DNA from: Chiloscyllium plagiosum
Taxonomy: Eukaryota
Length of the DNA: 64,000 bases
Direction: 5' to 3'
Assembly (NCBI RefSeq): GCF_004010195.1
Contig: NC_057719.1
Span: 46,609,533 to 46,673,532 of the forward strand
The translations under genes were made by a program, and so were the position numbers. This document shows, piece after piece, positions 1,413 through 62,996 of this stretch. The stretch's first letter is position 1; each line of letters opens with the position of its first letter. The notes under the pieces were generated by a model. The model was not told the DNA's origin. It did no database searches and saw only the letters and a program-made list of their open reading frames with translations.

Positions 1413-2146
1413 TCAGGGGTCAGGAGGGGGATGGGGCTGGGGAGGGGAAGGTAGCTGGGAATGAGATAGGTAGATGAATGTGGGGGGTGATGGTGGTAGG
1501 TTGGAACAGATAGATGCAAAGGAAGATATACAGGTTATGACAGTTCAAGAGAGTGGTGCCAAGTTGGAGGGTTGGATCAGGGATAACGTGGGGGGAGGGG
1601 AGATGAGGAGGAAACTGGCGAAATTGACATTGATTCCGTGTGGTTGAACTCTACCTCCCACTCTGCCAAGGTCATGCTAGTCCTGGGCTGCCTCCACCAC
1701 CAAATCCTAGCCACCCGATGACTGGAGGAAGAACACCTCATCTTCCGCCTTGAGACCCTCCAACCACATGGAATCAATGTTGATTTCACCAGTTTCCTCA
1801 TTCTTCTCTTCCCCCCCCCCCCCCCATTATCCTAGGTCCAACCCTCTAACTTGGCACCGCGATCTTGAACTGTCATACCTGTTCATCTTTCTCCCCACTA
1901 ATCTGCTTCACCCTCCGCTCTGACCTATCACCAATACCCTCCCCAACCTTCATCTACCTATCGCATTCAAAGCTACCTTTCTCCCCCCCCACCCCTCCTC
2001 CCTCAAAAGTCCCAGCCTCCGCTCAATTTGCCTCTCAACTCTCCACTCACCCCATTTTCCTGATGAAGAGCTTATGTTGTTGACTCTCCTGCTCCTCGGC
2101 TGCTGCCTGATTGGTTGCGCTTTTCTAGTGCCATACTTTTTGACTT
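1413..2146 (+). mobile_element. Penelope-like element 3' end with inverted upstream copy (pseudo-LTR)
   Basis: 1722-1796 encodes LEEEHLIFRLETLQPHGINVDFTSF, a GIY-YIG endonuclease C-terminus typical of PLEs. ~1413-1648 is a reverse-complement copy of ~1760-2000. A decayed hammerhead-like CTGATGAAGAGC lies at ~2060. Confidence 0.8.
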
Positions 2147-2366
2147 GTGGGAGAACTTTCCCAATTTTGACATGTGTTCTCAGATATTAGCAAGAAGAAC
2201 TTTAAAAGGTCAATAGAAATGTATGTGCCTTTGCTGTTTCTGGTGACTTGGTCAATGCCATTTGAGCCATTCAGTTTCATTCCTTTTACCAGAGTTTGTA
2301 CTAGTTAGAAACAACTGAGTGATTTGCTATTGTCAGTAAATATTCAATTTTTTTTTTCCCCTACAG

Positions 2367-2420
2367 GCTCCAGTGATGATTCATCCAAGGCTGGCTTATT
2401 TGCTCTTTGCACATTGGATG
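2367..2420 (+). CDS. ITFG2: Internal 54-bp coding exon of KICSTOR subunit ITFG2 (phase 1 to phase 1)
   Basis: Strong acceptor (T-run CCCCTACAG|) and donor (|GTAAGG). It translates as (G)SSDDSSKAGLFALCTLD(G), matching in length and motif the human ITFG2 segment GHGTESSGSGLFALCTLDG, recalled from memory rather than searched. Confidence 0.85.
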
Positions 2421-2589
2421 GTAAGGACTTGTAATTATTTCTAGTTTGGCATAACAATAAAGTCTAGAGATTTTATTTTCTTTCCAACATGTTTTTCAAA
2501 CCAGCAAGGTCAATCATTACCTTTTCTCACTGTCATCATTTCTAAGATAGTGCATTATTCCACAATGAATGGTTATCCACATTATATTC

Positions 2590-3942
2590 ACGGTTTAAGA
2601 ATGGTGGTAAGGACAAGCCAGGGAGCTATAGACCAATGAGCCTGATGGTGGTGGGCAGGTTGTTGGAGGGAATGCTGTACATGTATTTGGAAAGGCAAGG
2701 GCTGTTAGGGATAGTCAACATGGCTTTGTGTGTAGAAAGTGATGTCTCACAAACTTAATTGAGTTTTTTGACAATGTAACAAAGGATTGATGAGGGCACA
2801 GCTGTAGATGTGATCTATGCGGGCTTCAGTAACGCGTTCAACAAGGTTCCCTATGGGAGACTGGTGAACAAGGTTAGATCTCAAGGAATACAGGGAGAAC
2901 TAGCCATTTGGATACAAAGGTAGAAGACAGAGGGTGGTGGTGGAGGGTTTTTTTTCAGACTGGAGACCTGTGACCAGCGGAGTGCCATAAGCATCAGTGC
3001 TAGGTACACTACTTTTTGTCATTTATATAAATGATTTAGATGTGAGCATAAACAGCATAGTTCGTAAGTTTGCAGATGACATCAAAATTGGAGGTGCAGT
3101 GGATAGTGAAGATTATAATGGGATCTTGATCGGATGGGCCAAAGGGTTGAGAAGAGGCGGGTGGAGGTTAATTCGGATAAATATGAGGTACTGCATTTTG
3201 GGAAAGCAAATCTTAACAGGACTTGCACACTTAATGGTAAGCTCCTAGGGGGTGTTGCTGGACAAAGAGACCTTGGAGTGCAGGTTCATAGCTCCTTGAA
3301 AGTGGAGTTGCAGGTAGATAGAATAGTGAAGGTGTTTGGTATGCTTTCGCTTATTGGTCAGAGTATAGAGTACAAGAGTTGGGAGGCCATGTTGCGGCTG
3401 TACAGGATATTGGTTAGGCCATTATTGGAATATTGTATGCAATTCTGATCTTCCTATCAGAAAGATGTTGTGAAACTTGAAAATGTTCAGAAAAAATTTA
3501 TAAGGACGTTGCCAGGGTTGGAGGACTTGAGCTATGGGGTGACGTTGAACAGGCTAGGGCTGTTTTCCTTAGAGCATCGGAGGCTGAGGGGTGACCTTTG
3601 TAGAGGTTTGTGAAATCATGTTGGGTATGGATAGGATAAATAGACAAAGTCTTTTCCCTGGGTTGGGGAAGCCAGAACTAGAGGGCATAGGTTTAGGTTG
3701 AAAGGGGAAAAATATAAGAGACCTAAAGGGCAACTTTTTCACGCAGAGGGTGGTACATGTATGGAATGAGCTGCCAGAGGAAGTGGTGGAGGCTAGCACA
3801 ATTGCAACATTTTAGAGGCATCTGGATGGGTATCTGAATAGGAAGAGTTTGGAGGGATATGGGCTGGGTGCTGGCAGGGGGGACTAGATTGGGTTGGGAT
3901 ATTGGTCAGCATGGGTCTGTTTCCATGCTGTACATCTATGAC
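2590..3942 (+). mobile_element. CR1 LINE, 5'-truncated (RT to 3' end), degenerate
   Basis: ORF fragments [20 protein letters not shown] and LYRILVRPLLEYC. The 3' UTR ends in CTGTTTCCATGCTGTACATCTATGAC, directly abutting the minisatellite. Confidence 0.9.
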
Positions 3943-6900
3943 GGAAGCAGTCCCGGAGTAGCAGCCGGCACGGGGAAGCAGTCCCAGAGTAGCAGCCGGC
4001 ACGGGGAAGCAGTCCTGGAGTAGCAGCTGGGACGAGGAAGCAGTCCCAGAGTATCAGCCGGGACGGGGAAGCAGTCCCGGAATAGCAGCCAACATTGGGA
4101 AGCAGTCCCAGAGTAGCAGCCGGCACGGGGAAGCAGTCCCGGAGTAGCAGCCGGCACGGGGAAGCAGTCCCGGAGTAGCAGCCGATACAAGGAAGCAGTC
4201 CCAGAGTAGCAGCCGACACAAGGAAGCAGTCCCGGAGTAGCAGCCGATACAAGGAAGCAGTCCCAGAGTAGCAGCCGGGACGGGGAAGCAGTCCCAGAGT
4301 ATCAGCCGGGACGGGGAAGCAGTCCCGGAGTAGCAGCCGACACGAGGAAGCAGTCCCGGAGTAGCAGCTGATACGGGGAAGCTGTCCCGGAGTATCAGCC
4401 GATACGGGGAAGCAGACCCGGAGTATCAGCCGATACAAGGAAGCAGTCCCGGAGTAGCAGCCGACACGGGGAAGCAGTCCCAGAGTAGCAGCCGGGAGGA
4501 GGAAGCAGTCCCGGAATAGCAGCCAACATTGGGAAGCAGTCCCAGAGTAGCAGCCGGCACGGGGAAGCAGTCCCGGAGTAGCAGCCGGCACGGTGAAGCA
4601 GTCCCGGAGTAGCAGCCGACACAGGGAAGCAGTCCCGGAGTAGCAGCCGACACGGTGAAGCAGTCCCGGAGTAGCAGCCGATACAGGGAAGCAGTCCCGG
4701 AGTAGCAGCTGGGACGAGGAAGCAGTCCCGGAGTAGCAGCCGATACGGGGAAGCAGTCCCGGAGTCGCAGTTGGGACGAGGAAGCAGTCCCGGAGTAGTA
4801 GCCGACACAAGGAAGCAGTCCCGGAGTAGCAGCCGGGAGGAGGAAGCAGTCCCGGAATAGCAGCCAACATTGGGAAGCAGTCCCAGAGTAGCAGCCGGCA
4901 CGGGGAAGCAGTCCCGGAGTAGCAGCTGGGACGAGGAAGCAGTCCCGGAATAGCAGCCAACATTGGGAAGCAGTCCCGCAGTAGCAGCCGATACAAGGAA
5001 GCAGTCCCAGAGTAGCAGCCGGGAGGAGGAAGCAGTCCCGGAATAGCAGCCAACATTGGGAAGCAGTCCCGGAGTAGCAGCCAGCACGGGGAAGCAGTCC
5101 CGGAGTAGCAGCTGGGACGAGGAAGCAGTCCCGGAATAGCAGCCAACATTGGGAAGCAGTCCCAGAGTAGCAGCCGATACGGGGAAGCAGTCCCGGAGTA
5201 GCAGCCATTACAGGGCAGCAGTCCCGGAGTAGCAGCCGGGACGAGGGAAGCAGTCCCGGAGTAGCGGCCGACACAGGGAAACAGTCCCGGAGTAGCAGCC
5301 GATACGGGGAAGCAGTATTGGAGAAGCGGACGGCACGGGGAAGCAGTCCCGGAGTAGCAGCCGACATGGGGAAGCAGTCCCGGAGTAGCAGCCGATACGG
5401 GGAAGCAGTCACGGAGTAGCAGCTGGGACGAGGAAGCAGTCCCGGAGTAGCAGCCGATACGGGGAAGCAGTTCCGGAGTAGCAGCTGGGACGAGGAAGCA
5501 GTCCCGGAGTAGTAGCCGACACAGGGAAGCAGTCCCGGAGTAGCAGCCGACACAGGGAAGGAGTCCCAGAGTAGCAGCTGACACGGTGAAGCAGTCCCGG
5601 AGTAGCAGCCGACACAGGGAAGCAGTCCCGGAGTAGCAGCTGACACGGTGAAGCAGTCCCGGAGTAGCAGCCGATACGGGGAAGCAGTCCCGGAGTAGCA
5701 GCTGGGACGAGGAAGCAGTCCCGGAGTAGCAGCCGACACAGGGAAGGAGTCCCAGAGTGGCAGCCGACACGGGGAAGCAATCCCGGAGTAGCAGCTGGGA
5801 CGGGGAAGAAGTCCCGGAGTAGCAGCCGACACGGGGAAGCAGTCCCGGAGTAGCAGCCGACACAGGGAAGCAGTCCCGGAGTAGCAGCCGACACGGGGAA
5901 GCAGTCCCGGAGTAGCAGCCGATACCGGGAAGCAGTCCCGGAGTAGCAGCCGGGACGGGGAAGCAGTCCCGGAGTAGCAGCCGATACGGGGAAGCAGTCC
6001 CGGAGTAGCAGCAGATACGGGGAAGCAGTCCCGGAGTAGCAGCAGATACGGGGAAGCAGTCCCGGAGTAGAGCCGATACCCCGATACCGGGAAGCAGTCC
6101 CGGAGTAGCAGCCGATACCGGGAAGCAGTCCCGGAGTAGCAGCCGATACGGGGAAGCAGTCCCGGAGTAGCAGCAGATACGGGGAAGCAGTCCCGGAGTA
6201 GCAGCAGATACGGGGAAGCTGTCCCGGAGTAGCAGCCGACACGGGGAAGCAGTCCCAGAGTATCAGCCGATACGGGGAAGCTGTCCCGGAGTAGCAGCAG
6301 ATACGGGGAAGCAGTCCCAGAGTAGCAGCTGGGACGGGGAACAGACCCGGAGTAGCAGCTGGGACGGGGAACAGACCCAGAGTAGCAGCCGATACCATGA
6401 AGCAGTCCCGGAGTAGCAGCCGATACGGGGAAGCAGTCCCGGAGTAGCAGCCGATACGGGGAAGCAGTCCTGGAGTAGCAGCCGGGACGAGGGAAGCAAT
6501 CCCAGAGTAGCAGCCGACACGGGGAAGCAGTCCCGGAGTAGCAGCCGATACGGGGAAGCAGTCCCGGAGTAGCAGCCGATACGGGGAAGCAGTCACGGAG
6601 TAGCAGCCGACACGGGGAAGCTGTCCCGGAGTAGCAGCCGATACAGGGAAGCAGTCCCGGAGTAGTGGCCGACACGGGGAAACAGTCCCGGAGTAGCAGC
6701 CGACACATGGAAACAGTCCCGGAGTAGCAGCCGATACGGGGAAGCAGTCCTGGAGTAGCAGCCGGGACGAGGGAAGCAATCCCAGAGTAGCAGCCGACAT
6801 GGGGAAGCAGTCCCGGAGTAGCAGCCGACACGGGGAAGCAGTCCCGGAGTAGCAGCCGATACGGGGAAGCAGTCCCGGAGTAGCAGCCAGGACGAGGAAG

Positions 6901-9900
6901 CAGTCCCGGAGTAGCAGCCGATACGGGGAAGCAGTCCTGGAGTAGCAGCCGGGACGGGGAAGCAGTCCCAGAGTAGCAGCCGATATGCGGAAGCTGTCCC
7001 GGAGTAGCAGCCGACACGAGGAAGCAGTCCCGGAGTATCAGCCGACATGTGGAAGCAGTCTCGGAGTAGCAGCCGATACGGGGAAGCAGTCCCGGAGTAG
7101 CAGCCGGGACGAGGAAGCAGTCCCGGAGTAGCAGCCGATACGGGGAAGCTGTCCCGGAGTATCAGCCAACACAGGGAAGCAGTCCCGGAGTAGCAGCTGG
7201 GACGAGGGAAGCTGTCCCGGAGTAGCAGCCGACACAGGGAAGCAGTCCCGGAGTAGCAGCCGGGACGAGGGAAGCAGTCCCGGAGTAGCAGCCGATACGG
7301 GGAAGCAGTCCCGGAGTAGTGGCCGACACAGGGAAACAGTCCTGGAGTAGCAGCCGATACGGGGAAGCAGTCCCGGAGTAGCAGCCGACACAGGGAAGCA
7401 GTCCCGGAGTATCAGCCGGGACGGGGAAGCAGTCCCGGAGTAGCAGCCGACACGGGGAAGCAGTCCCGAAGTAGCAGCCTACACGGGGACGCAGTCCGGG
7501 AGTAGCAGCTGGGATGGGTAGGCAGTCCCGGAGTATCAGCCGACACGAGGAAGCAGTCCCGGAGTAGCAGCCGATACGGGGAAGCTGTCCCGGAGTAGCA
7601 GCCGACATGAGGAAGCAGTCCCGGAGTATCAGCCGACATGTGGAAGCAGTCCCGGAGTAGCAGCCGATACGGGGAAGCAGTCCCGGAGTAGCAGCCGACA
7701 CGGGGAAGCAGTCCCGGAGTAGCAGCCGACACGGTGAAGCAGTCCCAGAGTATCAGCCGACACGGGGAAGCAGTCCCGGAGTATCAGCCGATACAGGGAA
7801 GCAGTCCCGGAGTAGCAGCCGACACGGGGAAGCAGTCCCAGAGTATCAGCCGACACGGTGAAGCAGTCCCGGAGTAGCAGCCGACACAGCGAAGCAGTCC
7901 CGGAGTAGCATCCGATACAGGGAAGCAGTCCCGGAGTAGCAGCCGACACGGGGAAGCAGTCCCAGAGTGTCAGCCGACACGGGGAAGCAGTCACGGAGTA
8001 GCAGCCGACACAGTGAAGCAGTCCCGGAGTAGCAGCCGACACGGGGAAGCAGTCCCGGAGTAGCAGCCGATACAGGAAAGCAGTCCCGGAGTAGCAGCTG
8101 GGACGAGGAAGCAGTCCCGGAGTAGCAGCCGATACGGGGAAGCAGTCCCGGAGTAGCAGTTGGGACAAGGATGCAGTCCCGGAGTAGTAGCCGACACAGG
8201 GAAGCAGTCCCGGAGTAGCGGCCGATATGGGGAAGCAGTCCCGGAGTAGCAGCCGATACGGGGAAGCAGTCGCGGAGTAGCAGCTGGGACGGGGAAGCAG
8301 TCCCGGAGTAGCAGCCGACACGGGGAAGCAGTCCCGGAGTATCAGCCAGTACGGGGAAGCAGTCCCGGAGTAGCAGCCGACACGGGGAAGCAGTCCCAGA
8401 GTAGCGACGGGCGCGGGGAAGCAGTCCCGCAGTAATGGCCGGTGTGGGGAAGCAGGCCCGGAGTAGCGGGGGGAGTGGGGAAGCCGGCACGGAGTAGCGG
8501 GCAGTGTGGGGAAGCAGAACCCAGAATAGCTGCCGGTGTAGGGAATGAGGCCCGGAGTAGCAGCCGGTGTGGGGAAGCAGTCCCGGAGTAGCGGCAGGTG
8601 TGGGGAAGCAGTCCCGGAGTAGCGGCGGGTGTGGGGAAGCACGCCTGGAGTAGCAGTGGGTGTGGGGAAGCAGGCGCGGAGTAGCGGCAGGTGTGGGGAA
8701 GCAGTCCCGGAGTAGCAGCGGGTGTGGGGATGCAGTCCCGGAGTAGCGGCGGGTGTGGGGAAGCACGCCTGGAGTAGCAGTGGGTGTGGGGAAGCAGGCG
8801 CGGAGTAGCGGGCGGTGTGGGGAAGCAGAACCCAGAGTAGCTGCCAGTGTAGGGAATGAGGACCGGAGTAGCAGCCGGGGTGGAGAAGCAGTCCAGGAGT
8901 AATGGCTGGTCTGGGGAACGGTCCTGGCGTAGCGGCCGGTGTGCGGAAGCAGACCCAGAGTAATGGTCGGTGTGGGGAATCAATCCCGGAGTAATGGTCG
9001 GTGTGGGGAATCAATCCCGGAGTAATGGTCAGTGCGGAGAAGAAATCCCGGAGTAATGGTCGGAGCGGGTAATCAATCCCGGAGTAATGGCCAGAGCAGG
9101 GAAGCAATCCCGGAGTAATGGCCGGTGTGGGGAATCAATCCCAGAGTAGTGGCCGGTGTGGGAAGCAGTCCCGGAGTAATGGCCTGTGTGGGGAAGCAGA
9201 CCCAGAGTAGCAGCCGGTGTGGGGAAGCAGGCCCGGAGTAACGGCAGGTGTGGGGAATCAATCCCAGAGTAGTGGCCGGTGTGGGAAGCAATCCCGGAAT
9301 AACGGCCGGTGTGGGGAAGCAGTCCCAGAGTAACGTCCAGTGTGGTGAAGCAGGCCCGGAGTAACGGCAGGTGTGGGGAAGCAGTCCTGGAGTAATGGCC
9401 AGTGTGGGGAAGCAGACCCGGAGTAGCAGCCGGTGTGGGGAAGCACACCTGGAGTAGCAGCCGGGACGGGGAAGCAGACCCGGAGGCAGACCCGGAGTAG
9501 CGGCCGGTGTGGGGAAGCAGACCGGAATAACGGCCGGTGTGGGGAAGAGGTCCCAGAGTAATGGCCAGTGTGGGGAAGCAGGCCCGGAGGAGTGGCCGCT
9601 GTGGGGAAGCAGATCCGGAGTAATGGCCGGTGTGGGGAAGCGGTCCCGGAGTAGCAGCCGACACGGGGAAGCAGTCCCAGAGTAGCGGCTGGTGTGTGGT
9701 AGCAGACTCGGAGTAGCGGCCGGTGTGCAGAACGGTCCCGGAGTAATTGTCGGTGTGGAAAATCAATCCCGGAGTAATGGCCGGTGCGGGGAAGCAATCC
9801 CGGAATAATTGCCGGTGTGGGGAATCAATCCCAGAGTAGCGGCCGGTGCGGGGAAGCAGTCCCGGAGTAATGGCCGCTGTGGGGAACAGTCCCGGAGTAG

Positions 9901-12900
9901 CAGCCGACACGGGGAACCAGTCCCGGAATAATGGCCGGTGTGGGGAATCAATCCCGGAGTAATGGCCGGTGTGGGGAAGTAGTCCCGGAGTAAAGGCCGG
10001 TCTGGGGAACAGTCCAGGAGTAATGGCCGGTGTGGGGAATCAATCCCGGAGTAATGGCCGGTGCGGGAGAGCAATCCCGGAGTAATGGCCGGTGTGGGGA
10101 ATCAATCCCGGAGTACTGGTCTGTGCGGGGAAGCAATCCCGGAGTAATGGCCGGTGTGGGGAACCAATCCCAGAGTAATGGCCAGTGTGGGGAACCAGTC
10201 CCGGAGTAACGGCCGGTGTGGGGAATCAATCCCAGAGTAATGGTCGGTGTGGGGAATCAATCCCGAAGTAATGGCCGGTGTGGGGAATCAATCCCGAAGT
10301 AATGGCCGGTGCGGGGAATCAATCCCGAAGTAATGGCCGGTGCGGGGAATCAATCCCGAAGTAATGGTTGGTGTGGGGAAGCAGACTCGGAGTAGCGGCC
10401 GGTGTGGGGAAGCAGTCCCGGAGTAACGGCCGGTGTGGGGAAGCAGACGCGGAGTAATGGCCGATGTGGGGAAGCAGTCCCGGAGTAATGGTCGGTGTGG
10501 AAAATCAATCCCGGAGTAATGGCCGGTGCGGGGAAGCAATCCCGGAGTAATTGCCGGTGTGGGGAATCAATCCCGGAGTAGCGGCCAGTGCGGGGAAGCA
10601 GTCCTGGAGTAACGGCCGGTGTGGGGTCGCAATCCCAGAGTAAGGCCGGTGTGTGGAACCAGTCCCGGAGTAGTGGCTGGCACAGGGAGGCAGCCCCAGA
10701 GTAGCAGCCGGCATGGTGAAGCAGTCCTGGAGTAATGGCAGATGAGGGGAAGCAGACTCGAAGTAATGGTCGGTGTGGGGAATCAATCCCAGAGTAATGG
10801 CCGGTGTGGGGAAGCAGTCCTGGAGTAATGGTCGGTGTGGAAAATCAATCCCGGAGTAATGGCCGGTGCGGGGAATCAGACCTGGAGTAAAGGCCGGTGT
10901 GGGGAAGCATTCCCGGAGTAAAGGCCGGTGTGAGGAAGCGGACCCGGAGTAATGTCCGGTGTGGGGAAGCTGTCCCGGAGTAATGTCCGGTGTGGGGAAG
11001 CTGTCCCAGAGTAATGGCCGGTGTGGGGAAGCTGTCCCGGAGTAATGTCCGGTGTGGGGAAGCTGTCCCAGAGTAATGGCCGGTGTGGGGAAGCAGACCT
11101 GGAGTAATGGCCGGTGTGGGGAAGCAGACCCGGAGTAATGGCCGGTGTGGGGAAGCAGACCCAGAGTAATGGCCGGTGTGGGGAAGCTGTCCCAGAGTAA
11201 CAGCCGGTGTGGGGAAGCAGACCCGGAGTAACGGCCGGTGTGGGGAAGCAGTCCCGGAGTAATGGCTGGTGAGGGGAAGCTGTCCCAGAGTAATGTCCGG
11301 TGTGGGGAAGCTGTCCCAGAGTAATGGCCGGTGTGGGGAAGCAGGCCCAGAGTAACAGCCCGTGTGGGGAAGCAGGCCCGGAGTAGCGGCCGGTGTGGGG
11401 AATGGTCCCGGAATAATGGCCGGTGTGGGGAACGGTCCCTGAGTAGTGGCCGGTATGGAGAAGCAGACCCGGAGTAGCGGCCGGTGTGGAGAAGCAGTCC
11501 TGGAGTAATGGTCGGTGTGGAAAATCAATCCTGGAGTAATGGCCGGTGCGGGGAAGCAATCCCGGAGTAATTGCTGATGTGGGGAATCAATCCTGGAGTA
11601 ATGGTCGGTGCGGGGAAGCAATCCCGGAGTAACGGCCGGTGTGGGGAAGCAGAGCTGGAGTAACGGCCGGTGTGGGGAAGCAGACCCAGAGTAATGGTCA
11701 ATGCGGGGAAGCAATCCCGGAGTAATGGCCTGTGTGGGGAAGCAGACCTGGAGTAAAGGCCGGCGTGGGGAAGCAGTCCCAGAGTTGCGGCCAGTGTGGG
11801 GTAGCAGTCCCAGAGTAACAGCCAATGTGGGGAAGCAGTCCCGGAGTAATGGTCGGTGTGGGGAAGCAGACCCGGAGTAATGGTCGGTGTGGAAAATCAA
11901 TCCCGGAGTAATGGCCGGTGCAGGGAAGCAATCGCGGAGTAATTGCCGGTGTGGGGAATCAATCCTGAAGTAATGGCCGGTGTGGGGAAGCAGTCCTGGA
12001 CTGGAGGCTGACATGGGGAAGCAATCCCAGAGTAACAGCCGGTGTGGGGAAGCAGTCCCGGAGTAGCCGCCGGCACGGGGAAGCAGACCCGGATTAGCAG
12101 CCGGCACAGGGAAGCAGTCCCAGAGTAGTAACTGACATGGGGAAGCAGTCCCAGAGGAGTAACGGCCTGGAGTAATGGCCGGTGTGGGGAAGCAGACCCG
12201 GAGTAGCGGCTGGTGTGGGGAAGCAGACCCGGAGTAATGTCCGGTGTGGGGTAGCAGACCCGGAGTAGCGGCTGGTGTGGGGAAGCAGACCCGGAGTAAT
12301 GTCCGGTGTGGGGTAGCAGACCCAGAGTAACGGCCGGTGTGGGGAAGCAGACCCGGAGTAACAGCCGGTGTGGGGAAGCAGACCCGGAGTAACAGCCGGT
12401 GTGGGGTAGCAGACCCAGAGTAATGGCCGGTGAGGGGAAACAGTCCTGGAGTAACGGCCGGTGTCAGGAAGCAGATCCAGAGTAATGGCCGGTGTGGGGA
12501 AGCAGACCCGGAGTAATGGCCGGTGTGGGGAGACAGTCTCGGAGTAATGGCCGGTGAGGGGAAGCATTCCCGGAGTAACGGCCGGTGTAGGGAAACAGTC
12601 CCGGAGTAACGGCCGGTGTGGGGAAGCAGACCCGGAGTAATGGCCGATGTGGGGAAACAGTCCCGGAGTAACGGCCGGTGTGGGGAAGCAGACCCGGAGT
12701 AATGGCCGGTGTGGGGAAGCAGTCCCGGAGTAATGGCCGGTGTGGGGAAGCAGTCCCGGAGTAATGGCCGGTGAGGGGAAGCATTCCCGGAGTAACGGCC
12801 GGTGTAGGGAAGCAGACCCGGAGTAATGGCCGGTGTGGGGAAACAGTCCCGGAGTAATGGCCGGTGAGGGGAAGCAGTCCCGGAGTAATGGCAGGTGTGG

Positions 12901-12966
12901 AGAAGCAGTCCCGGAGTAATGGCCGGTGTGGGGTAACAGTCCTGGAGTAATGGCTGGTGTGGGGAG
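3943..12966. repeat. ~9 kb GC-rich minisatellite, ~31-bp unit (roughly 290 copies), two sub-arrays
   Basis: Left unit GGGGAAGCAGTCCCGGAGTAGCAGCCGAYAC (~3943-8400); right unit GGGGAAGCAGWCCCGGAGTAATGGCCGGTGT (~8400-12966). The long minus-strand ORFs are a by-product of the repeat. Confidence 0.98.
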
Positions 12967-25457: not shown

Positions 25458-25780
25458 ATAGAATCTCTACAGTGTGGAGGCACACCATTCAGCTCATCAA
25501 GTCCACAATGTCTCTCTGAAAAACATCCCACCCAGACTGATCCCCTACTCTACCTCTGTAACCCTGCATTTCCCATGGCTAATTCATCTAACTTGCATAT
25601 CCATGACACAATGGGTAATCCACCTAACTACAGATCTTTGGACTGTGGGAGAAACTGGAGCACCGAGAGGAGATCTAAACAAACATGGGGGGAATGTACA
25701 AACTCCACACAGACAGTTGCCTGAGACTGGAATCAAACTCAGGTCCCTGGCACAGTGTAGCAGCAGTGCTAACTACTGAG
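25458..25780 (-). mobile_element. HE1-type V-SINE, degenerate
   Basis: Reverse complement of the tRNA head, V-domain (GTGTGGAGTTTG..TCCCACAGTCCAAAGAT) and CR1-like tail. Confidence 0.8.
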
Positions 25781-27791: not shown

Positions 27792-28120
27792 GGGCGGCAC
27801 GGTGGCACAGTGATTAGCACTGCTGCCTCACAGTGCCAGAGACCCGGGTTCAATTCCCGACTCAGGCGACTAACTGTGTGGAGTTTGCACATTCTCCCCG
27901 TGTCTGCGTGGGTTTCCTCCGGGTGCTCCAGTTTCCTCCCACAGTCCAAAGATGTGCAGGTCAGGTGAATTGGCCGTGCTAAATTGCCCGTAGTGTTAGG
28001 TAAAGGGGTAAATGTAGGGGAATGGGTGGGTTGCGCTTCGGCGGGTCGGTATGGACTTGTTGGGCCGAAGGGCCTGTTTCCACACTGTAAGTAATCTAAT
28101 CTAATCTAATCTAAAAAAAA
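27792..28120 (+). mobile_element. HE1-type V-SINE, full length
   Basis: tRNA-like head (TGGCACAGTG..GGTTCAATTCC), V-SINE core GTGTGGAGTTTGCACATTCTCCCCGTGTCTGCGTGGGTTTCCTCCGGGTGCTCC, CR1-like tail GGGCCGAAGGGCCTGTTTCC and (TCTAA)n. Confidence 0.92.
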
Positions 28121-44825: not shown

Positions 44826-45127
44826 TTAGATTACATTAGATTCCCTACAATGTGGAAACAGGCCCTTTGGCCCCACAAGTCCACACCGACCCTCCAAAGA
44901 GTAACCCCAGTCCCATTTCCCTCTAACACTACGGACAATTTAGCATGGCCAATTCACCTGGCCTGCACATCTTTGGACTGTGGGAGGAAACCAGAGCACC
45001 CGGAGGAAACCCACGCAGACACGGGGAGAATGTGCAAACTCCACACAGACAGTCGCCCGAGACTGGAATCAAACCTGGGACGCAAGTGCTGTGAGGCAGC
45101 AGTGCTAACCACTGAGCCACCATGCCA
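44826..45127 (-). mobile_element. HE1-type V-SINE
   Basis: Reverse complement of the 27792-28120 family. Confidence 0.9.
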
Positions 45128-46115: not shown

Positions 46116-46425
46116 ATTAGATTAGATTAGGTTCGGTTCCCTACAGTGTAGAAACAGGCCCTTTGGCCCAACAAGTCCACACCGACCCTCCGAAGTGTAA
46201 CCCACCCCCTCTGACTAACACACCTAACACTATGGACAATTTAGCATGGCAAATTCATCTGACCTGCACAACTTTGGATTATGGGAGGAAACCAGAGCAC
46301 TCGGAGGAAACCCACGCAGACACGGGGAGAAAGTGCAAACTCCACACAGCCAGTCCCTCAAGGCTGGAATTGAACCTGGGACCCTGGTGCTGTGAGGCAG
46401 CAGTGCTAACCACTGAGCCACCATG
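46116..46425 (-). mobile_element. HE1-type V-SINE inserted in the CR1 endonuclease domain
   Basis: Same family; flanked by TGTGAT on both sides; CR1 reading resumes at ITAITETWL. Confidence 0.9.
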
Positions 46426-49638: not shown

Positions 49639-49941
49639 GATGAACCAGGACACTCAAATCCCTTTGGACAACCAAATTTTTCTGACAGAGATTTATGCGA
49701 TATTGCTCCCATAATTGATATCTAGATCTCAGAAAGACAGGAGGTTGGAATGAACATTTGCAGAAAAAAATATGAAGAAGGTCAAAAGAGAGAAGGAGGC
49801 ATAGAGAAAATATGCGAGGAAGTGAAATAACAAGATGTTGTAAAATCTATCAGGAATAGTACGATGATAGTAAAGAATGAATTAGATCAAGTACATTATG
49901 TCCTCTCCAATCCTGAAATCAGAATTTCAGAAACACCAACT

Positions 49942-50148
49942 GGATGTAGGTTTGCTCACTGAGCTGGAAGGTTCATTTTCAGACATTTTGTCACCATACT
50001 AGGTAACATTTTCTCTAGGCCTCCAGACGAAGGCTCACTGACGACGTTACCTAGTATGGTGATGGAATGTCTGAAAATGAACCTTCCAGCTCAGTGAGCA
50101 AACCTACATCCAGAACCTCAACCTGAGCTACAAATCTTCTCAAAACTC
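49942..50148. mobile_element. Penelope-derived hairpin insert (family 2) with 11-bp TSD
   Basis: ~68-bp inverted arms (49940-50007 / 50046-50113). TSD AAACACCAACT (49931-49941) / AAACACTAACT (50149-50159). Same sequence as the termini of the PLE at 57416-57993. Confidence 0.8.
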
Positions 50149-50172
50149 AAACACTAACTATACAGTCATTGA

Positions 50173-50282
50173 ACCAGGACCCTCATTCCTGAAGAAGGGC
50201 TTATGCCCGAAACGTCGATTCTCCTGCTCCTCGGATGCTGCCTGGTCTGCTGTGTTTTTCCAGCACCACATTTTTTAACACA
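50173..50282 (+). mobile_element. 110-bp Penelope-derived insert (family 1) with 14-bp TSD
   Basis: TATACAGTCATTGA at 50159-50172 and 50283-50296. Confidence 0.8.
50185..50220 (+). ncRNA. Minimal type I hammerhead ribozyme motif (intact core)
   Basis: ATTC-CTGAAGA-A-GGGC-TTAT-GCCC-GAAA-CGTC-GATT: CUGANGA box, 4-bp stem II, GAAA box, palindromic ACGT mini stem III and a GUC cleavage triplet. Confidence 0.75.
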
Positions 50283-50850
50283 TATACAGTCATTGAGTCA
50301 GAGAGCAGGGAAATAGACCCTTCAGTCCGACTCGTCCATGCTAACCAAGTTTCCCAAACTAAATTAATCCTACTTGTCTGCATTTGGCCCATATCCCTCT
50401 AAACGTTCCTATTCATATACTTGTCCAAAGGTCAAGTACTTTGTAACAGTACCCGCATCAACTACTGCCTCTGGCAGTTCATTCCATTTCCCCATCACCT
50501 TCTGTGTAAAAACGTTGTCCCTCAGGTCCCATTTAAATCTTTCTCCTTTCATCTTAAAACGAGTTTTGAACTCGCTTTGCTATTCACCTTATCCGTGCCC
50601 CTCATGGTGTTATAAATGTCTATGAGGTCACCCCTCAACCTCTTCTGCTCCAGTGCAAAATGTCCCAGTTTATCCAGCCTGCCCTCATAATTCTTACCCT
50701 CCAGTCCTGATGACAACCTTGTAAATATTTTGTGCACCCTCTCCAATTTAATAATATCCTTCCTCCTCCAGGGTGACCAGAACTGTACACAGTACTCTAA
50801 AAGTGGCCTCATCAACATCCTGTACAACCTCACATGACATTCCAACTTCT
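50283..50850 (-). mobile_element. CR1 3' end
   Basis: LYRMLMRPLLEYCVQFWSP..LERVHKIFTR..RLRGDLI. Confidence 0.9.
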
Positions 50851-50961
50851 AAATTGAAAGGAAACAGTGGTTGTCCGGAATTTGTTAAGCAGACTCACTG
50901 AGTCACCAGTCTGTTGAATGGCTACTGTTTGAAGGCATTAATTCTCTTTTCACTGTCTATG

Positions 50962-51151
50962 TTAAAAATCATACAACACCAGGTTATAGTCCAACAGGTT
51001 TCTTTGGAAGTACTAGCTTTCAGAGTGTTGCTCCTTCATCGGGTAGCTCTGAAAGCTAGTACTTTCAAGTAAACCTGTTGGACTATAACCTGGTGTTGTG
51101 TGATTTTTAGCTTTGTCCACTCCAGTCCAACATGGGCATCTCCACATCTTT
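50962..51151. mobile_element. Penelope-derived hairpin insert (family 4) with ~10-bp TSD
   Basis: ~60-bp inverted arms (50964-51025 / 51047-51108). TSD ACTGTCTATG / ACTGCCTATG. The minus strand has CCGATGA-A-GGAG..CTCT-GAAA-GCTA. Confidence 0.7.
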
Positions 51152-51424
51152 ACTGCCTATGATACTCTCTGTTGGTCTCTCTGTCAATCCATTTTTTTTA
51201 TCTCTCTGCTTCTTACTGACTTTCTCTTTGTATGAGTATGCCTCTATCTCTGACTCCCCCTCCTCTCCTATCATAACAATGTTTTTTTTTTGGATTCATA
51301 AGGTTATATGTAAGTAAAGTGTACCATAATGTAAGCATGTTACTCAAAGTTATTGGAAATGTAGAAGTCATTAAGAAACTAGACAAAGCTGCTTCAGCAA
51401 TAAATTGCTGTAAGACAAGTGATG

Positions 51425-57030: not shown

Positions 57031-57415
57031 TGGGAGATCACTCTTCTAGGATAATTTTATATGGCTAAATCCTACTTCTTATTATTAAAAAAAATATTTT
57101 TGTCCAAACTTTAAGCCATTGTCTCATTAAAACCCATTTAGAAAGCCACATCTGAGGTATCTGAAAGTTGTTGGAACTGACATCCAAGCTACAGTGCCAA
57201 TGTCCTCTCATGACATACAGAGAGAAATTGAATAAAATAGGCTTATATTCCCTGGAGTTTGAAGAATGATGTGTGATCAAATTGTGTGATCAAATTGAAA
57301 CATTTACAAGCCTTAAAAAATTTGAAACAAAAACAGAGAATGCTGGAGAAACTCGCAGGTCTGGTATCATCTGTGAAGAGGGAAACAGAGTTAATTATTC
57401 AAATCCAATATGATA

Positions 57416-57993
57416 TGTAGTGAGTTTTGGGAAGATTTGTAGCACAGGTTGAGGTTCTGGATGTAAGTTTGCTTGCTGAGCTGGAAGGTTCATTTTCAGA
57501 TGTTTCATCACCATACTAGGTAGCATTATCAGTGAGCCTCCGGTGATCCACTTTCTGTTTGTGTTTAGGTTTCCTTGGGTTGGTGGTGTCATTTCCTTTG
57601 GTGATGCCATTTCCTATCTCTAGTATCCTTACATACAGATGAAGAAGGACTCCTCTTCGACTGGGACAACACATCCAACTTAGGACAAGCTAAAGAGAGA
57701 CACGCATTAGAATTCCTAGAAGCATGGTATTCCAACTGGAATTCTATCAACAAACACATTGACTTGAACCCCGTTTACCACCCTCTGGGAAAAATAACAG
57801 GAAATGACATCACCACAGGAAATGATATTACCACTGGAAATGACACCACCAATCCAAGGAAACCTAAACACATGAATAGAAGTGGGTCTTAATACCAGTG
57901 CTTCACCGGAGGCTCACGATGATGTTACCTAGTATGGTGACAAAACGTCTGAAAATGATCCTTCCAGCTCAGTGAGCAAACTTACATCCACAC
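57416..57993 (+). mobile_element. Penelope-like element 3' end with inverted pseudo-LTR (family 2), 7-bp TSD
   Basis: ~57655-57790 encodes FDWDNTSNLGQAKERHALEFLEAWYSNWNSINKHIDLNPVY (GIY-YIG C-terminus). 57416-57610 is an inverted copy of the 3' end. TATGATA lies at 57409-57415 and 57994-58000. Confidence 0.85.
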
Positions 57994-58499
57994 TATGATA
58001 CTTCTTCAGAATTGAAGAGAGAGATGATAACTTTTATAATGTTGAAAAAGATAGGGAGGAGCAAGTTGAACAGAAGGTAAGTCAGGGAAAACTTAGGGAT
58101 TAGAGATCACAGAACAAAATTAGGTGGAGTTCTGTAAAGTGGACTCCCCAATGTAGAGGAGATCCCACTGAGAGTGGCAAATGCAGTACACAAGATTGAA
58201 AGAAGTTCAAGTAAACTGCAGTTCTCTGGAGTCCTTGGACCTTGAAAACTGAGGAAGGAGGAAGAATCAGGAAGTATGACCTTGAATTTCTGATCACTTG
58301 CTATTTTAATATTCCAACATGCTCTCATGGTTGCATTTCTGTTCTAGAGCTGCTGCAGTGTTCCAGGGAAGTCCAGTGCAAGCTATTTCTATTTCAGGTT
58401 TCTAATATGTGCAAGATTTTACTTCTATCTTAAAGAATCTGACAGAGTCGATGCGGAGAAAATATTTCCTTTAGCTGAGAACAGTGGGTCATCATTGTA

Positions 58500-58795
58500 G
58501 GCAGCATGGTGGCTCAGTGGTTAGCACTACTGCTTCACAGCACCAGGGACCCAGGTTTGTGTCCAGCCTCAGCCAACTATCTGTGTGTAGTTTGCACCTT
58601 TTCCCTGTGTCTGTGTGGGTTTCCACCGGATGCTCCAGTTTCCTCCCACAGTCCAAAGATGTGCAGGATAGGTGGATTGGCCATGCTGAAATTATCCATA
58701 CTGCTCAGGGATGAGTAGGCTAGGTGGACTAGCCATGGTAAATGTGGCATTAATGGGCTGAATGGCCTCCTTCAGCACTGTAAGGGTTCTATGGT
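58500..58795 (+). mobile_element. HE1-type V-SINE, degenerate
   Basis: TGGCTCAGTGGTTAGCAC head, V-domain and tail. Confidence 0.85.
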
Positions 58796-60877
58796 CTCAG
58801 AGTAAGAGTTTCGACATTTAGAATTAAGACAAAGTGAACCTCTTTTACAAAATTAAAAGGCTATGCTCCATGATTGGGACAGGGGGTTTCATAAATTATT
58901 GAGTGTAATAGGAGTTAAGAAATATTGGGTAAGTGCAGGAAGGTAGAAGTGAGGTAGGAAAGTAGAATTGAGGTGGATGGTCAGCCATGGTTTGACTGAA
59001 TGGTAGAATAGGCTTCAAGGGCTAATTAGTCTTGTTTGGGTCTTAGTTTACATGAATTGTGGGCCCACCAAAATATGTCAGAGGAAGTTAACTTCATTTA
59101 ATTATGCTCAACAAGTGCCCAGATTATAAGGGAGATATCTCAGGTGGGCATTAACTGCCTTGCATGGCAATGTTTAGGACATGTAGCAATTCCGAAAGGG
59201 CTCCATGGAAACGGAATTGTTTTAACAGAAAGTTGGGACCTCATTTGTCGCTCCCAACAGACTCCTGCAGAAATTACTCTGCGAGTGCACCGGAAACTTC
59301 TTGTCCCAGTATATTTGACCAAGCCTATGTAGAGGCAGTGTTGTGAAGTTTGTTGCTCTAGTCCCCCTGGTAACAGTCTTAACAGGGGCATAGCACATAA
59401 TTTTCATGTAAATACAGAAATCATCACTGCTTGATTAACAGTTCCCTTTTGAATTTGAGGAGCCAGTTTTCAAAATCCATGAGGTTCCAGCAAATCTTTT
59501 CTGATATATAAAAGCCGGTTTCTATCATTTTCGATATGAAACTTATTTAAAATCCCTGCAGGAGAAGGAATTCTGAAATCTTTAATAAAAGACAACAGGA
59601 GACATTTTGGAAAGAATGGACACATTGAAAATCCTGATGGCCATGAAAAAAAGTACATTCTTCACTTCGAGAGATTAGTTCATCATTGTCAGCATGTCAG
59701 AATTTTTTTCTCACCATGGAGAATCTCCCAGGACAGAGACCATCTTTGCTTTTTCATTAAATAGAAGTATGTTTACCAAAATGAAGTCAGAAGTCTTCTG
59801 CCTCAAGGAATGCCAAATTTTAAAAAGCAGGTAGCATCCAGGATGACTATAACATAGACAATGGTTTTCAGCTTAGCTTTTCAGTCAACTCACTCTAAGA
59901 GTATTTTAACGTGCCCTACCATTCTAGAAAAAATTCTGTTATTTTCTTGGTGATCTTAGAACTTAGATGATAACAGCATCATCTTATATAGGATGTTTAA
60001 CATGCTAAAATGCCCCAAGGCTCCTTACAGGAGTATTGCAAGTCAAAATATGTCACCAGGCCATATAAATACCTCAAAATACTTGCAAACTAGTTTGGTG
60101 CAGGCTTTGACAAGCATATTTGCAAACATTCATCGAAATCTCAATAAGAGCGTCGAGTTTAAGAAGCTGAGATTTATCTATAAGAGTGATGAAAGCTATG
60201 ACAGCTTTTACACTCCATGATCCCTTGGGGAGAGAGGGGGAGATGGTTGGGGTTGGGGGCGGGGTGGGGGGCGCGAGGGGAGTGCTAATTTACAGTCATA
60301 GACTCATGGAGTCATACTGCATGGAAACAGACCCTTCGGTCCAACCAGTCCATGCCGACCATGATCCCAAAATAAACTGGTCCCCCCCCACCTGTGCCTG
60401 GCCCATATCCATCCAAATATTTCTTAGTCATATACTTATCTAAATGTATTTTAAATGTTGTAACTGGACCCGCATTCATGACTTCCTCTGGAAGTTCATT
60501 CCACACACGAACCAGTTTCTGTGTAAACTAACTGCCCCTCATGTTCTTTTTAAATATTTCTCCTTCACCTTAAAAATGTGCCCCCCTCGTCTTGAAATTC
60601 CTCATTCTATGGAAAAAACACCAGCCATTCGCCTTATTTATACACCTCATGATTTTATAAAACCTTATACGGTCACCCTTCAGTCTCCCTCGCTCCCAGT
60701 GAAAAAGTACCAACCTATCCAGCTTCTCCCCATAACTCAAACCCTCCATTCCTGGCAAAATCCTGGTAAATCTCTTCTGAACCCTCTCCAGTTTAATAAT
60801 ATCCTTCCTATAACAGGGTGACCAGAAGGGTTTATGCCTGAAATGTCGACTCGCCAGATCCATCCTGATGAATGGCT

Positions 60878-61625
60878 TATAGAGTCATAGAAAACACCCA
60901 CAACCTACCCAACCTCTCCTTATAGCTCAACTCCTCCAACCCTGGCAACATCCTTGTAAATCTTTTCTGAACCCTTTCAAGATTTGGAACATACTTCCGA
61001 TAGGAAAGAGACCAAAATTGCATGCAATATTCCAAAGGTGGCCTAACCGATGACCTGTACAGCAGCAACATGACCTCCCAACTCCTATACTCAATACTCT
61101 GACTAATAAAGGAAAGCCTTCTTCACTATCCTATCTCCCTGCGACTCCACTTTTAAGGAGCTATGACCCTGCACTCCAGCAACACTCCCTAGGACCTTAC
61201 CATTAAGGGGATAAGCCCTGCTAAGATTTGCTTTCCCAAAATGCAACACCTCACATTTATCTAAACTAAACTCCATTTGCTACTTCTCAGCCCATTGGCC
61301 CATCTGATCAAGATCCGTTGTAATCAGAGGTAACCTTCTTCGCTGTCCACTACACCTCCAATTTTGGTGTCATCTGCAAACTTACTAACTATACCTCTTA
61401 TTCTCACATCCAAATCATTTATATAAATGATAAAAAGTAGTGGACCCAGCACTGATCCTTGTGGCAATCCACTGGTCACAGGCCTCCAGTCTGAAAAACA
61501 ACCCTCCAAAACCACCCTCTGTCTTCTACCTTTGAGCTAGTTCTGTATCCAAATGGCTAATTCTCCCTGTATTCCATGAGATCTAACCTTGCTAATCAGT
61601 CTCCGATGGGGAACCTCGTTGAATG
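60878..61625 (-). mobile_element. Nested CR1 fragment inside a Penelope-derived insert
   Basis: [34 protein letters not shown], with its own CTATGACTCTAT tail. Confidence 0.85.
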
Positions 61626-62388
61626 CCTGACTTGCTGAATCTCCTGCCCCTTGGATGCTGCCTGACCTGCTGTGCTCTTCCAGCATCATATTTTTCGACT
61701 CTGATCACCAGCATCTGCAATACTCACTTTCTCCTGACCAGAAATGGACACAGTACTCCAGAAAAGACCTCAGCAACATCCTGTACAACCTCAACATAAT
61801 GTTCCATGCCTATACTCAAACGTCTGAGCAATGAAGGCAAGTGTACTAAAAGCCTTCTCAATCACCTTGTTTATATGTGATGCAAACCTCAAAGAATTAT
61901 GTACCTGAACTTATTTTGTTCTACAATACTACCTAAGGCCTTACCTTTAATTGTATAAATCTTACTCTTTTTGTTTTATCAAAATGCAATACCTCGCATT
62001 TATCCAAATTAAACTCCATCTGCCACACTTCAGCCCAATGACCAATTGATCAAGATCTCTTTGTAATCTTAGGTAACCTTCTTCGTTGTCTACTATACAA
62101 CAAATTTTGGTGTCATCTGCAAACCTACTAGCCATGTGTTCTAAATTCTCATCTAAATCGTTTATATAAATTACAAACAAAAGAAAGCCCAGTCTTGATC
62201 CCTGTGGAACACTACTGGTCACAGGTCTCTGAAAAATAACCCTCCACCATTACTCACTGTCTCTTGTTGTTAAGCCAATTTTATATTCAATTGGCAAGTT
62301 CACCCTGAATCTCATGTGATTTAACTTTACTAATTAACGTACTATGTGGAACCTTGTCAAAGGTTTTACTGAAGTCCAAGTAAACAAC

Positions 62389-62574
62389 AGGAAAAATTGA
62401 CGTTTCGGGCAAAAGCCCTTCAACAGGAAATGGGCAGCCCTTACTGATGAAGGGCTTTTGCCCAAGACATTGATTTTTCCTGCTCCTCGGATGCTGTCTG
62501 GCCTGCTTTGCTTCTCCAGCACCACTCTAATCTTGACTCTGATCCCTAGCATCTGCAGTACCCACCTCCGTCTC
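62389..62574. mobile_element. Penelope-derived insert (family 1) with two head-to-head hammerhead-like motifs, 15-bp TSD
   Basis: GTCCAAGTAAACAAC at 62374-62388 and 62575-62589. Minus strand CTGTTGA-A-GGGC-TTTT-GCCC-GAAA-CGTC; plus strand CTGATGA-A-GGGC-TTTT-GCCC-AAGA. Confidence 0.8.
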
Positions 62575-62996
62575 GTCCAAGTAAACAACGTCTACTGGCT
62601 CTGCCCTCATCAGTCTTCTTCATTACTTCCTGAAAAATATCAATCAAGTTTGTGAGACACGATTTCCCTCCACAAAACCATGCTGACTATCCCTAATCAA
62701 TCCCTAATCAATCCTTGCACATAAATCCTATCTTTTAGAATCACCTCCAACAATTTATCTACCATCAAAGTCAGGTCGAGAGCTCCCAGGCTTCTCCTTA
62801 CATCCTTCCTTCAGCAAGCTTACAACATTAGCCACACTCTAGTCCTCCGGTACCTCAACCATAGTTATAGATGATACAAATATTTCTAAAAGGGATGCTG
62901 CAATTTCCTCCCTAACTTCCCACAACCTCCTGGGATGCACTAGATCAGATCTGGAGATTTATCCACCTTTGCATTTGCTAGGACCTCCAAGACTTC

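Follow-up and report, generated by a model that had tools for sequence, protein, structure and literature searches.

Metazoan Penelope-like elements (PLEs) carry minimal hammerhead ribozymes in their pseudo-LTRs (pLTRs), as described in 2014 by Cervera and de la Pena (PMC4209133), who reported several families per genome (four in Schistosoma mansoni, six in the coelacanth Latimeria and eight in Xenopus), variation of stem II, a palindrome and pairs on opposite strands. Their motif consists of CUGANGA, one unpaired base, a stem II opened by G-C, GAAA, palindromic positions 15.2-16.2, an NUH triplet and a short helix I, and occurs mostly as solo copies, with opposite-strand pairs 100-700 bp apart. 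The copies in the window, the whole 64,000-nt stretch of DNA analysed here, largely resembled these, so that the PLE hammerhead pattern found here is already described and not new. They differed in the G-U pair closing stem II of the window copy of one family (F4). While 4,000-9,000 intact motifs per genome were reported in that study, the density here was far higher, with 19 arms in 64 kb when decayed arms were counted. No cartilaginous fish was found in its main text and supplement file 2 (four names, 0 hits).

The insertions also resembled those of known PLEs (Arkhipova 2013, PMC3846280; Craig 2021, PMC8557442) in 5' truncation, an adjacent inverted copy and a one-ended tail of 30-40 bp there, with target duplications of 8-10 bp compared to 9-14 bp here. 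Unlike those, most inserts here were barely more than motif and tail. Non-LTR retrozymes (PMC7229834; bioRxiv 10.64898/2026.07.22.740005) are likewise non-coding, hammerhead-bearing and pLTR-related and reportedly form tandem arrays with a complete motif per unit, in contrast to the solos, inverted pairs and one broken partial tandem seen here.

A search of the published papers found no description of the individual families, named F1-F4 here. Exact-pattern scans for F1/F3 in metagenome contigs, F3 in prokaryote genomes and F4 in viral contigs were empty; these collections are not expected to contain such DNA.

Results

Hammerhead arms and insertions in the window

The window contained truncated, mostly decayed end pieces of several PLEs, each with a minimal hammerhead. 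A total of 19 minimal-hammerhead arms in 12 insertions accounted for approximately 5% of the sequence; arm positions were set by hand on family alignments with C3 as the reference position. The original prediction had listed more than ten traces, and a hammerhead-like trace was indeed present at each. Second arms at 41600+, 22563- and 51051+, the remainder at 61633-61734 and a GIY-YIG remnant at 58141-58409 were added to its list. The features were as follows.

1413-2146, plus strand: F1 long copy with an inverted 5' arm (~1413-1646), endonuclease C-terminus, 3' UTR and a decayed arm (C3 at 2060) in which GAAA and the 3' half of stem II are deleted; no target duplication detected (inverted arms, arm table)
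1647-1802, plus strand: PLE GIY-YIG endonuclease C-terminus of F1, 52 codons with one in-frame stop (24 relatives at E<=0.001)
21620-21726, plus strand: stub of the F3 sister subfamily, C3 at 21628, GAAA lost (family alignment, arm table)
22498-22672, inverted pair: F3 sister subfamily, arms 22563- and 22579+, heavily decayed
29453-29580, minus strand: F3 stub bearing a tail, with its C3 at 29572 and a helix I of 4 bp (strict scan, arm table)
41509-41721, inverted pair: F1, both arms starting within the motif, only the + arm having a tail (41 nt); the 13-bp target duplication has 1 mismatch; arm 41601- has lost box 1 and reads GATA for GAAA (inverted arms, arm table, target duplication)
49942-50148, inverted pair: F2, C3 at 50015- and 50038+, both arms with stem II paired at 6/6 bp, the + arm carrying a 36-nt tail; the 11-bp target duplication has 1 mismatch (inverted arms, family-wide evidence, arm table)
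50173-50282, plus strand: solo F1 stub, the one arm whose core is intact (50189-50216), bounded by an exact 14-bp target duplication (strict scan, arm table)
50962-51151, inverted pair: F4, full arm with C3 at 51042-, + arm (51051+) starting in loop II; a 39-nt tail is present, and the 10-bp target duplication has 1 mismatch
57322-58428, minus strand: F3 sister-subfamily long copy, C3 at 58009 and G12 at 57400, split in loop II by an F2 element
57421-57990, inverted pair: F2, long, around the ORF C-terminus, C3 at 57532- and ~57916+, 10-bp target duplication with 1 mismatch
57620-57790, plus strand: F2 ORF C-terminal peptide, 75% identity to P0001 and 66% over 32 aa to P0026
58218-58141, minus strand: decayed GIY-YIG motif of the F3-type long copy (tblastn within the window)
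58248-58409, plus strand: inverted endonuclease C-terminal piece of the same copy (tblastn within the window)
60828-61734, plus strand: F1 partial tandem, one arm from 60828 (starting at stem II) and one with C3 at 60865, both motifs broken, the second interrupted by CR1 sequence at 60881-61632; the 9-bp target duplication is exact
62387-62574, inverted pair: F1 variant with loop TTTT, C3 at 62426- in an arm with A6>U and at 62444+ in one that has lost GAAA; the 13-bp target duplication is exact

The F1 pair at 41509-41721 lies in an L2-like repeat, and the variant pair at 62387-62574 sits within a CR1 piece.

A strict scan, requiring CUGANGA, a stem II of at least 4 bp, GAAA, the palindrome and NUH, gave 1, 4 and 7 hits in the window at 0, <=1 and <=2 core mismatches, respectively. 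Across 20 dinucleotide shuffles scanned in the same way, the corresponding means were 0, 0.45 and 4.9 and the maxima 0, 2 and 10. The four best matches (29572-, 50189+, 51042- and 62426-) thus exceeded chance, as the count of 4 at <=1 mismatch compared with a shuffled mean of 0.45 and a maximum of 2. Candidates at 20158-, 56025+ and 58430+ were dropped as hammerheads because they were at chance level in the shuffled scan, and CTGAAGA at ~1416- was dropped for having neither a stem nor GAAA after it. Rfam returned no hammerhead among its eight matches to the window, even at E up to 5. This, together with the seven hits at <=2 mismatches falling within the shuffled range, is what would be expected if the motifs were chance matches within ordinary repeats. 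That explanation is hardly conceivable and is already contradicted by the strict scan, the family letters and the arm table: in addition to the excess at <=1 mismatch, four families share one architecture, including the unpaired base following CUGANGA, the core is restored by the family letters among the differences listed, and the motif sits just downstream of PLE ORF ends.

Stem II, palindrome and decay of the core

The original prediction of at least four distinct families held for the stem II types, four of which were present. F1 and F3 cross-match, however, and are related by their sequences, leaving about three lineages. Stem II is 4, 6, 5 and 4 bp long in F1, F2, F3 and F4, respectively. 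As predicted, it differs and still pairs: the stem of every family pairs fully (chance 0.4-2% per family), and full pairing, preceded by one unpaired base, was found in 9 of the 15 arms that kept both strands. The families were not alignable outside the core, and a cross-family MAFFT alignment was discarded because F2 was misaligned. Because the stem lengths differ and no alignment exists outside the core, the predicted covariation-like support amounted to structural conservation across about three lineages rather than column covariation; within families, a single compensatory stem pair was detected, in F3 (G-C in 29572-, A-U in 22579+).

The core boxes were conserved as the majority state of each family, not in individual copies, since CUGANGA and GAAA were both intact in 1 of the 19 arms (50189+). 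U16.1 of the NUH triplet was kept in all 17 arms retaining the region and no helix III was present, but the palindrome (ACGT or AGCT, positions 15.1-16.1) predicted to precede it was intact in 7 of these 17, most others being CpG-decayed. Over the 13 arms scored, helix I had 0-4 contiguous pairs, with 2 for the intact copy, 3 for F2 and F4 and 4 for F3, compared with 2-5 bp in the PLE type. The core decay is CpG-biased: 16 of 47 CpG positions had changed versus 7 of 72 non-CpG positions (p=0.002), in a window with a CpG o/e of 0.23.

Family-wide letters were obtained from relatives in three public runs (X1, X9 and X15), the evidence being the 40 of 112 differences and the 18 of 3,781 loose ends that were listed. 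None of the runs listed as containing these sequences is recorded as RNA; X15 is a putative RNA run, and the raw RNA run X22 was uninformative, with 0 reads. Among the differences listed, A13 of F2 was restored at a depth of 345,986/351,684 in X1, and U4 of F4, which is C in the full arm 51042-, in 37,797/40,624 in X1, 79% in X9 and 44% in X15. The lost core letters of F2 and F4 were thereby recovered from the public runs, and those of F3 by the in-window majority only. The F3 box given in the original prediction, 'GAAAACGTT', was that of one copy (29572-, with A9>C and G12>A). The five F3 arms point instead to GAAACGTT, with majorities of G 3/5, A 4/5, A 4/5, A 3/5 and C 3/5, followed by A3/G2 at position 16.2 (a CpG decay pattern), T 5/5 and T 4/5; an extra-A reading was ruled out by this five-arm table. 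The decayed relatives, which had been assigned to F3 with its GGGTC stem II, carry RAGTC/GACTC and are therefore a sister subfamily.

Coding remnants adjoining the hammerheads

The Penelope derivation of these minimal type I hammerhead families was supported by PLE ORF remnants adjoining three of the four (F1, F2 and F3-type) within the window. GIY-YIG endonuclease remnants were present upstream of the pLTR in F1, F3-type and, by homology, F2, all below Pfam thresholds. Pfam detected no family in either of the two window peptides, and among relatives it detected GIY-YIG only at E 0.008 (P0017) and 0.18 (P0015). Aligned relatives of the F1 peptide showed the VYC..LYIGET motif and, as seen in P0013 and P0024, a CxxxxCxxC linker before GIY-YIG; of the 24 relatives, P0002 (a repetitive, chance-like match) and P0006 (oversized) were left out of later steps. 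The linker matches the CX2-5CxxC of the Neptune clade (PMC8557442), although it was seen in relatives and not in the window, and Nematis carries such a linker too. The pieces at 58141-58409 gave tblastn E values of 1.4e-4 and 1.5e-5, with 13/26 residues identical to P0024. F1 and F3 thus appear to adjoin Neptune-type GIY-YIG endonuclease remnants, the clade name being taken from motifs and not from a tree.

The C-terminus flanked by F2 is probably of the Penelope/Poseidon type, again a name given by motifs rather than by a tree. The N-terminal part of P0026 is a reverse transcriptase (Pfam RVT_1 16-98). The nearest Pfam-bearing Atlas cluster to the F2 peptide has GIY-YIG in 17% of its members (score 0.85), which serves as a lead only. 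The near-length protein search with this peptide gave no candidate, and two longer-length searches gave one protein each. No full-length element and no reverse transcriptase adjoining any family was found within the window; reverse transcriptase was joined to matching C-termini only in the predicted relatives P0026 and P0024 (the latter resembling RT on visual inspection and giving no Pfam match), and P0026 and several other relatives are chimeric gene predictions. No PLE ORF adjoining F4 was found within the window.

F2, which has no intact ORF here, also resembled the Poseidon element PAc of Anolis (Frangieh 2024, PMC11167929) in placing its start codon where stem II begins, as found in three of the four F2 arms. 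The predicted cut lies 28 nt downstream of the ATG in F2, versus 26 bp after the start in PAc. As in PAc, two 3' ends, here 70 and 106 nt into the frame, define an A+C-rich tail (72% A+C in F2), its end at 106 nt compared with initiation at 111-118 in PAc. In 57526- the frame stays open as far as the end of the tail, and 3/4 F2 arms contain a stop; none of the four has an intact motif. The open frame of F4 stops after 8 codons. ATG-started open frames in loop II of F1 were discounted as too short.

Ends of the copies

Inverted arm pairs, short or long, occurred at six loci, in addition to the inverted 5' arm at 1413, and tails of 36-41 nt were on one arm only. A target duplication score of at least 8 was obtained at 8 of the 12 loci, compared with 9 of 300 random loci; no duplication was detected at the remaining 4. 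Inverted arms, one-sided tails and target duplications of 9-14 bp fit Penelope-like insertions. Ten of the 19 arms started within ~20 nt upstream of C3, five inside the motif and four far upstream, and none at the cut site. Among the loose ends listed, the 5' ends of the F1 stub at 50185/50186 run family-wide into unrelated flanks, with a 3' end at 50270, and the F4 3' ends lie at 51109 and 51148, 39 nt apart.

As arms start upstream of or inside the motif but never at the cut, and 5' ends enter unrelated flanks, the template may have been uncut by the ribozyme in vivo. We tentatively consider that priming might occur in the initial 70-106 nt of the ORF and copying run back as far as a start site a short way upstream of the hammerhead, producing a unit of 100-130 bp; the genome would then record, in very large numbers, the transcription start and both priming sites of several PLE lineages. 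This is a possible reading rather than the expected one, and similar ends would be expected from reverse transcriptase stalling at the folded motif or from a religated circle. No literature addressing such a reading of PLE copy ends was found by title or abstract start.

Discussion

The window copies are very probably 5'-truncated insertion products of at least three endonuclease-bearing PLE lineages, each master carrying a minimal hammerhead in its pLTR. The anatomy, the links of F1-F3 to ORFs and the decay pattern were observed, whereas cleavage and every enzymatic step are inferred. In a scheme modelled on PAc, the target would be nicked by the GIY-YIG endonuclease. Reverse transcription would begin internally, at either of two RNA positions ~40-80 nt beyond the motif, and the choice between them would decide whether the copy ends with the tail of 36-41 nt. 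Copying would pass back through the uncut hammerhead, usually halting near the upstream edge of the motif, a second, inverted copy would often be added, and repair would leave the duplication of 9-14 bp. The motif would be maintained by selection on the master RNA alone, which probably cleaves weakly, either by dimerising via the ACGU/AGCU palindrome or when assisted by the protein of the element, while the genomic stubs would decay neutrally.

The original prediction went further and proposed ribozyme-dependent mobility. In its strict form, where cleavage and religation make the template, this model was proposed by Cervera and de la Pena (PMC4209133). All four families preserve the core, stem II and palindrome at the family level, which argues that selection acts on the master RNAs to keep the fold; such selection indicates a use, not a requirement for mobility. 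In vitro, PAc inserts normally when its ribozyme is mutated, in a study that detected no RNA ends at the PAc cut site (PMC11167929), and minimal motifs cleave poorly (PMC4209133). Naiads without the motif reach very high copy numbers (PMC8557442), and no window copy begins or ends at the cut. Ribozyme-dependent mobility was thus unsupported, because 18 of 19 arms are broken, their decay is CpG-biased, the PLE ribozyme is dispensable in vitro and ribozyme-less Naiads are abundant; we regard a strict requirement for cleavage as unlikely.

Still less probable is that the short stubs are independent non-autonomous elements of a retrozyme-like or SINE-like kind, which would be transcribed, self-cleave, circularise and rely on PLE enzymes acting in trans for their copying. 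The copies are mostly 100-210 bp long with target duplications, and the families are extremely abundant (151,199 X1 contigs on 1.25 kb, CR1 piece included). Short head-to-tail joints also occur, at 60828/60865 and, among the loose ends listed, back to 50184-50188, and pLTR-derived retrozymes were reported in one chondrichthyan (bioRxiv 10.64898/2026.07.22.740005). Against this, none of the 19 Tandem Repeats Finder matches was a tandem array of the motif, and no retrozyme-type tandem units with complete motifs were present in the window, its sole same-strand pair (60828/60865) having two broken motifs. The 5' ends vary, with 4 of 19 arms extending into UTR or ORF; the absence of arm starts at the cut site and the 18 broken cores also argue against it. 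When folded, the inverted pairs form long hairpins of -49 to -135 kcal/mol in which the motif is buried.

Insertion of truncated copies from PLE masters, our preferred reading, leaves the existing model of these elements unchanged. The window adds a shark-like genome to the animals whose PLEs carry minimal hammerheads, at high density, and flags a repeat class missed by Rfam. The very many copies in several lineages provide material for real covariation tests, and mapping where copies start and end against the ribozyme bears on what the PLE hammerhead is for.

Hammerhead motifs and their decay

At least four hammerhead-bearing Penelope-like element (PLE) families (F1 to F4), each with its own stem II, had been proposed in the window, and this observation was confirmed in part. 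Profiles built from the window arms (copies of the minimal-hammerhead end piece, named by C3 position and strand) recovered all the traces originally listed, and no additional locus was found in the window. When scanned under strict criteria for minimal hammerheads, the window yielded 1, 4 and 7 matches at 0, ≤1 and ≤2 mismatches in the core (CUGANGA and GAAA boxes), as compared with means of 0, 0.45 and 4.9 in 20 shuffled controls. The best four matches were F3 29572-, F4 51042-, and F1 50189+ and 62426-. Rfam reported no hammerhead in the window.

The arms, placed by hand, numbered 19 in 12 insertions and occupied 3,314 bases (5.2% of the window), and only one of the 19 was intact. Box 1 was changed in 15/90 cases, in part via truncation. 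In the second box and the palindrome, changes were found at 16 of 47 CpG positions versus 7 of 72 other positions (p=0.002). This CpG-biased pattern is the one expected of neutral decay.

Sequence setting

The window has a GC content of 44.6%, is rich in repeats and is depleted in CpG (o/e 0.23 outside the satellite). LINE pieces bearing RT and endonuclease domains are numerous; we take the surrounding repeats to be CR1, L2 and Gypsy. The following features were also observed.

3943-12965: 9-kb satellite of 31-bp units, GC 53-64%, divided into two sub-domains, one at 3943-9485 and one at 9482-12965; strand skew gives long stop-free frames on the minus strand, and a CR1 piece is apparently interrupted by the satellite
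36107-36505: pair of short tandem repeats (one 14-bp x 5.9, the other 30-bp x 7.6) lying in a 250-codon stop-free frame
39196-40682, minus strand: decayed integrase (Pfam rve, E 0.006) and RNase H (RT_RNaseH, E 2e-13) sequence from a retroelement of LTR type; fragments of both domains occupy 39680-40682
25611-25780, 27786-28114, 44826-45126, 46117-46425 and 58493-58703: five copies of a dispersed repeat (170-320 bp, 73-86% identity), presumably SINE-like
62598-63105: CR1 piece whose end is repeated next to it in inverted orientation (71-nt arms, 83% complementary)

Restoration of the core and pairing of stem II

Contigs of three public sequence runs, under three organism labels, were aligned to 49900-51150 at 80% likeness, giving 151,199, 140,161 and 24,444 aligned contigs, numbers that include a CR1 piece and are not copy numbers. 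The family letter (that of the aligned contigs) at F2 50065 was A in 98% of the depth in one run (X1), restoring GAAA, and that at F4 51041 restored U4 in 93%, 79% and 44% of the depth in the three runs. The F1 core showed no difference among the 40 rows listed of 112. F3 lies outside this contig comparison; the majority of its five window arms reads GAAACGTT except at position 16.2, where A and G occur in three and two arms and both CA and TG are present, which points to a decayed CpG. Because the five-arm majority reads GAAACGTT, the GAAAACGTT originally given for F3 is a change in a single copy.

Since full pairing of a family stem is expected by chance in 0.4-2% of cases, and a Watson-Crick 15.2/16.2 pair in 19%, the master elements from which the stubs derive are under selection for the hammerhead fold. 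The covariation-like support claimed in the original prediction is weakened by family stems of unequal length, a joint alignment that fails for F2, cross-matches of F1 and F3 (E 1e-5 and 1e-6) and a single compensatory pair within families. The four families amount to about three independent lineages.

Anatomy and starts of the insertions

Inverted arms were found at seven loci (1413, 22498, 41509, 49942, 50962, 57421 and 62387). Tails of 36, 39 and 41 nt were confined to one arm, and ends in the contig alignment lay at 50270, 51109 and 51148. Direct repeats of 9-14 bp scoring ≥8 surrounded 8 of the 12 loci, compared with 9 of 300 random loci. F1 62387 and F1 60828 were nested within a CR1 piece, and the arm at 60865 was split by another. 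Predicted folds of the inverted pairs were hairpins (from -49 down to -135 kcal/mol), and each transcript of a pair holds only one sense arm; we therefore infer that these loci are unable to form a dimeric ribozyme in cis.

Insertions of F2, F1 and F4 lie within 1.2 kb at 49931-51161, and F2 57421 is nested in loop II of an F3-type copy; PLEs may favour AT-rich sites or those already occupied by a PLE. Both arms of the F4 palindrome (51011 and 51061) carry the same helix I variant, which is the minority state of the family (69% and 84% of the X1 depth show the family letter). This would fit a single template for the two arms, or conversion afterwards.

The start lay no more than ~20 nt upstream of C3 in ten of the 19 arms (limit set by the partner arm or the duplication, and judged by eye in 21628 and 29572), inside the motif in five, far upstream in four and at the cut site in none. 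Loose ends at 50185 and 50186 in the contig alignment led into unrelated sequence (agreement 0.31-0.33) and those at 50181 into common upstream sequence (0.43-0.46); none occurred at 50217 among the 18 rows listed of 3,781.

Links to PLE coding sequences

The PLE assignment held for three families by ORF link and for F4, which has no ORF link within the window, by anatomy. Within the F1 copy (1413-2146) lie 52 codons with 24 protein relatives, some carrying a GIY-YIG motif and a CxxxxCxxC linker; the Pfam GIY-YIG signal was weak (E 0.008 in one of 22 scanned). A tblastn search with these relatives detected another such remnant (58141-58409), which lies upstream of the F3-type arm 58009-. Between the arms of the F2 pair (57421-57990) is coding sequence for a peptide with 75% identity to the protein P0001 and, across 32 residues, 66% to P0026, which is a chimeric prediction with RT in its N-terminal part.

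F2 resembles PAc, a Poseidon-type PLE of Anolis, in its layout: stem II begins with an ATG in three of four arms (98% of the depth has T as the family letter at 50045), the F2 cut lies 28 nt after it, and F2 ends at 70 and 106 nt. By eye, the F2 family motif (50038-50071) and the second Clonorchis sinensis motif of PMC4209133 (Fig. S3) disagree at only ~4 of the 34 positions between C3 and the cut. The simple reading would be a common lineage in which coding and folding both act as constraints; horizontal transfer between the lineages of fluke and fish may also account for it, and a literature search listed nothing on the matter. A downstream block common to F1 (50220-50270) and F3 (29490-29540, minus strand), consisting of CTGAC or CAGAC, a pyrimidine run and CAG, resembles a candidate branch point and 3' splice site; introns in PLE pLTRs are known (PMC4209133).

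Relation to known elements

PMC4209133 describes the motif, notes that one genome can hold several families, compensatory changes included, and also covers the palindrome, solo copies, pairs on opposite strands and low activity in vitro. Inverted copies, tails and target duplications of PLE insertions are reported in PMC8557442 and PMC3846280, and internal priming and protein-assisted cleavage in PMC11167929. According to a preprint (bioRxiv 10.64898/2026.07.22.740005), retrozymes occur in one chondrichthyan, while five vertebrate classes have Neptune and Poseidon; the available portion of PMC8455134 records Penelope in whale shark and does not mention ribozymes. Literature searches listed no published description of these particular families. 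The proposed ribozyme-dependent mobility was not supported: ribozyme mutants had no effect on insertion in vitro (PMC11167929), and Naiads without a ribozyme still proliferate (PMC8557442, PMC3846280). The families of the window belong to an already known kind of element.
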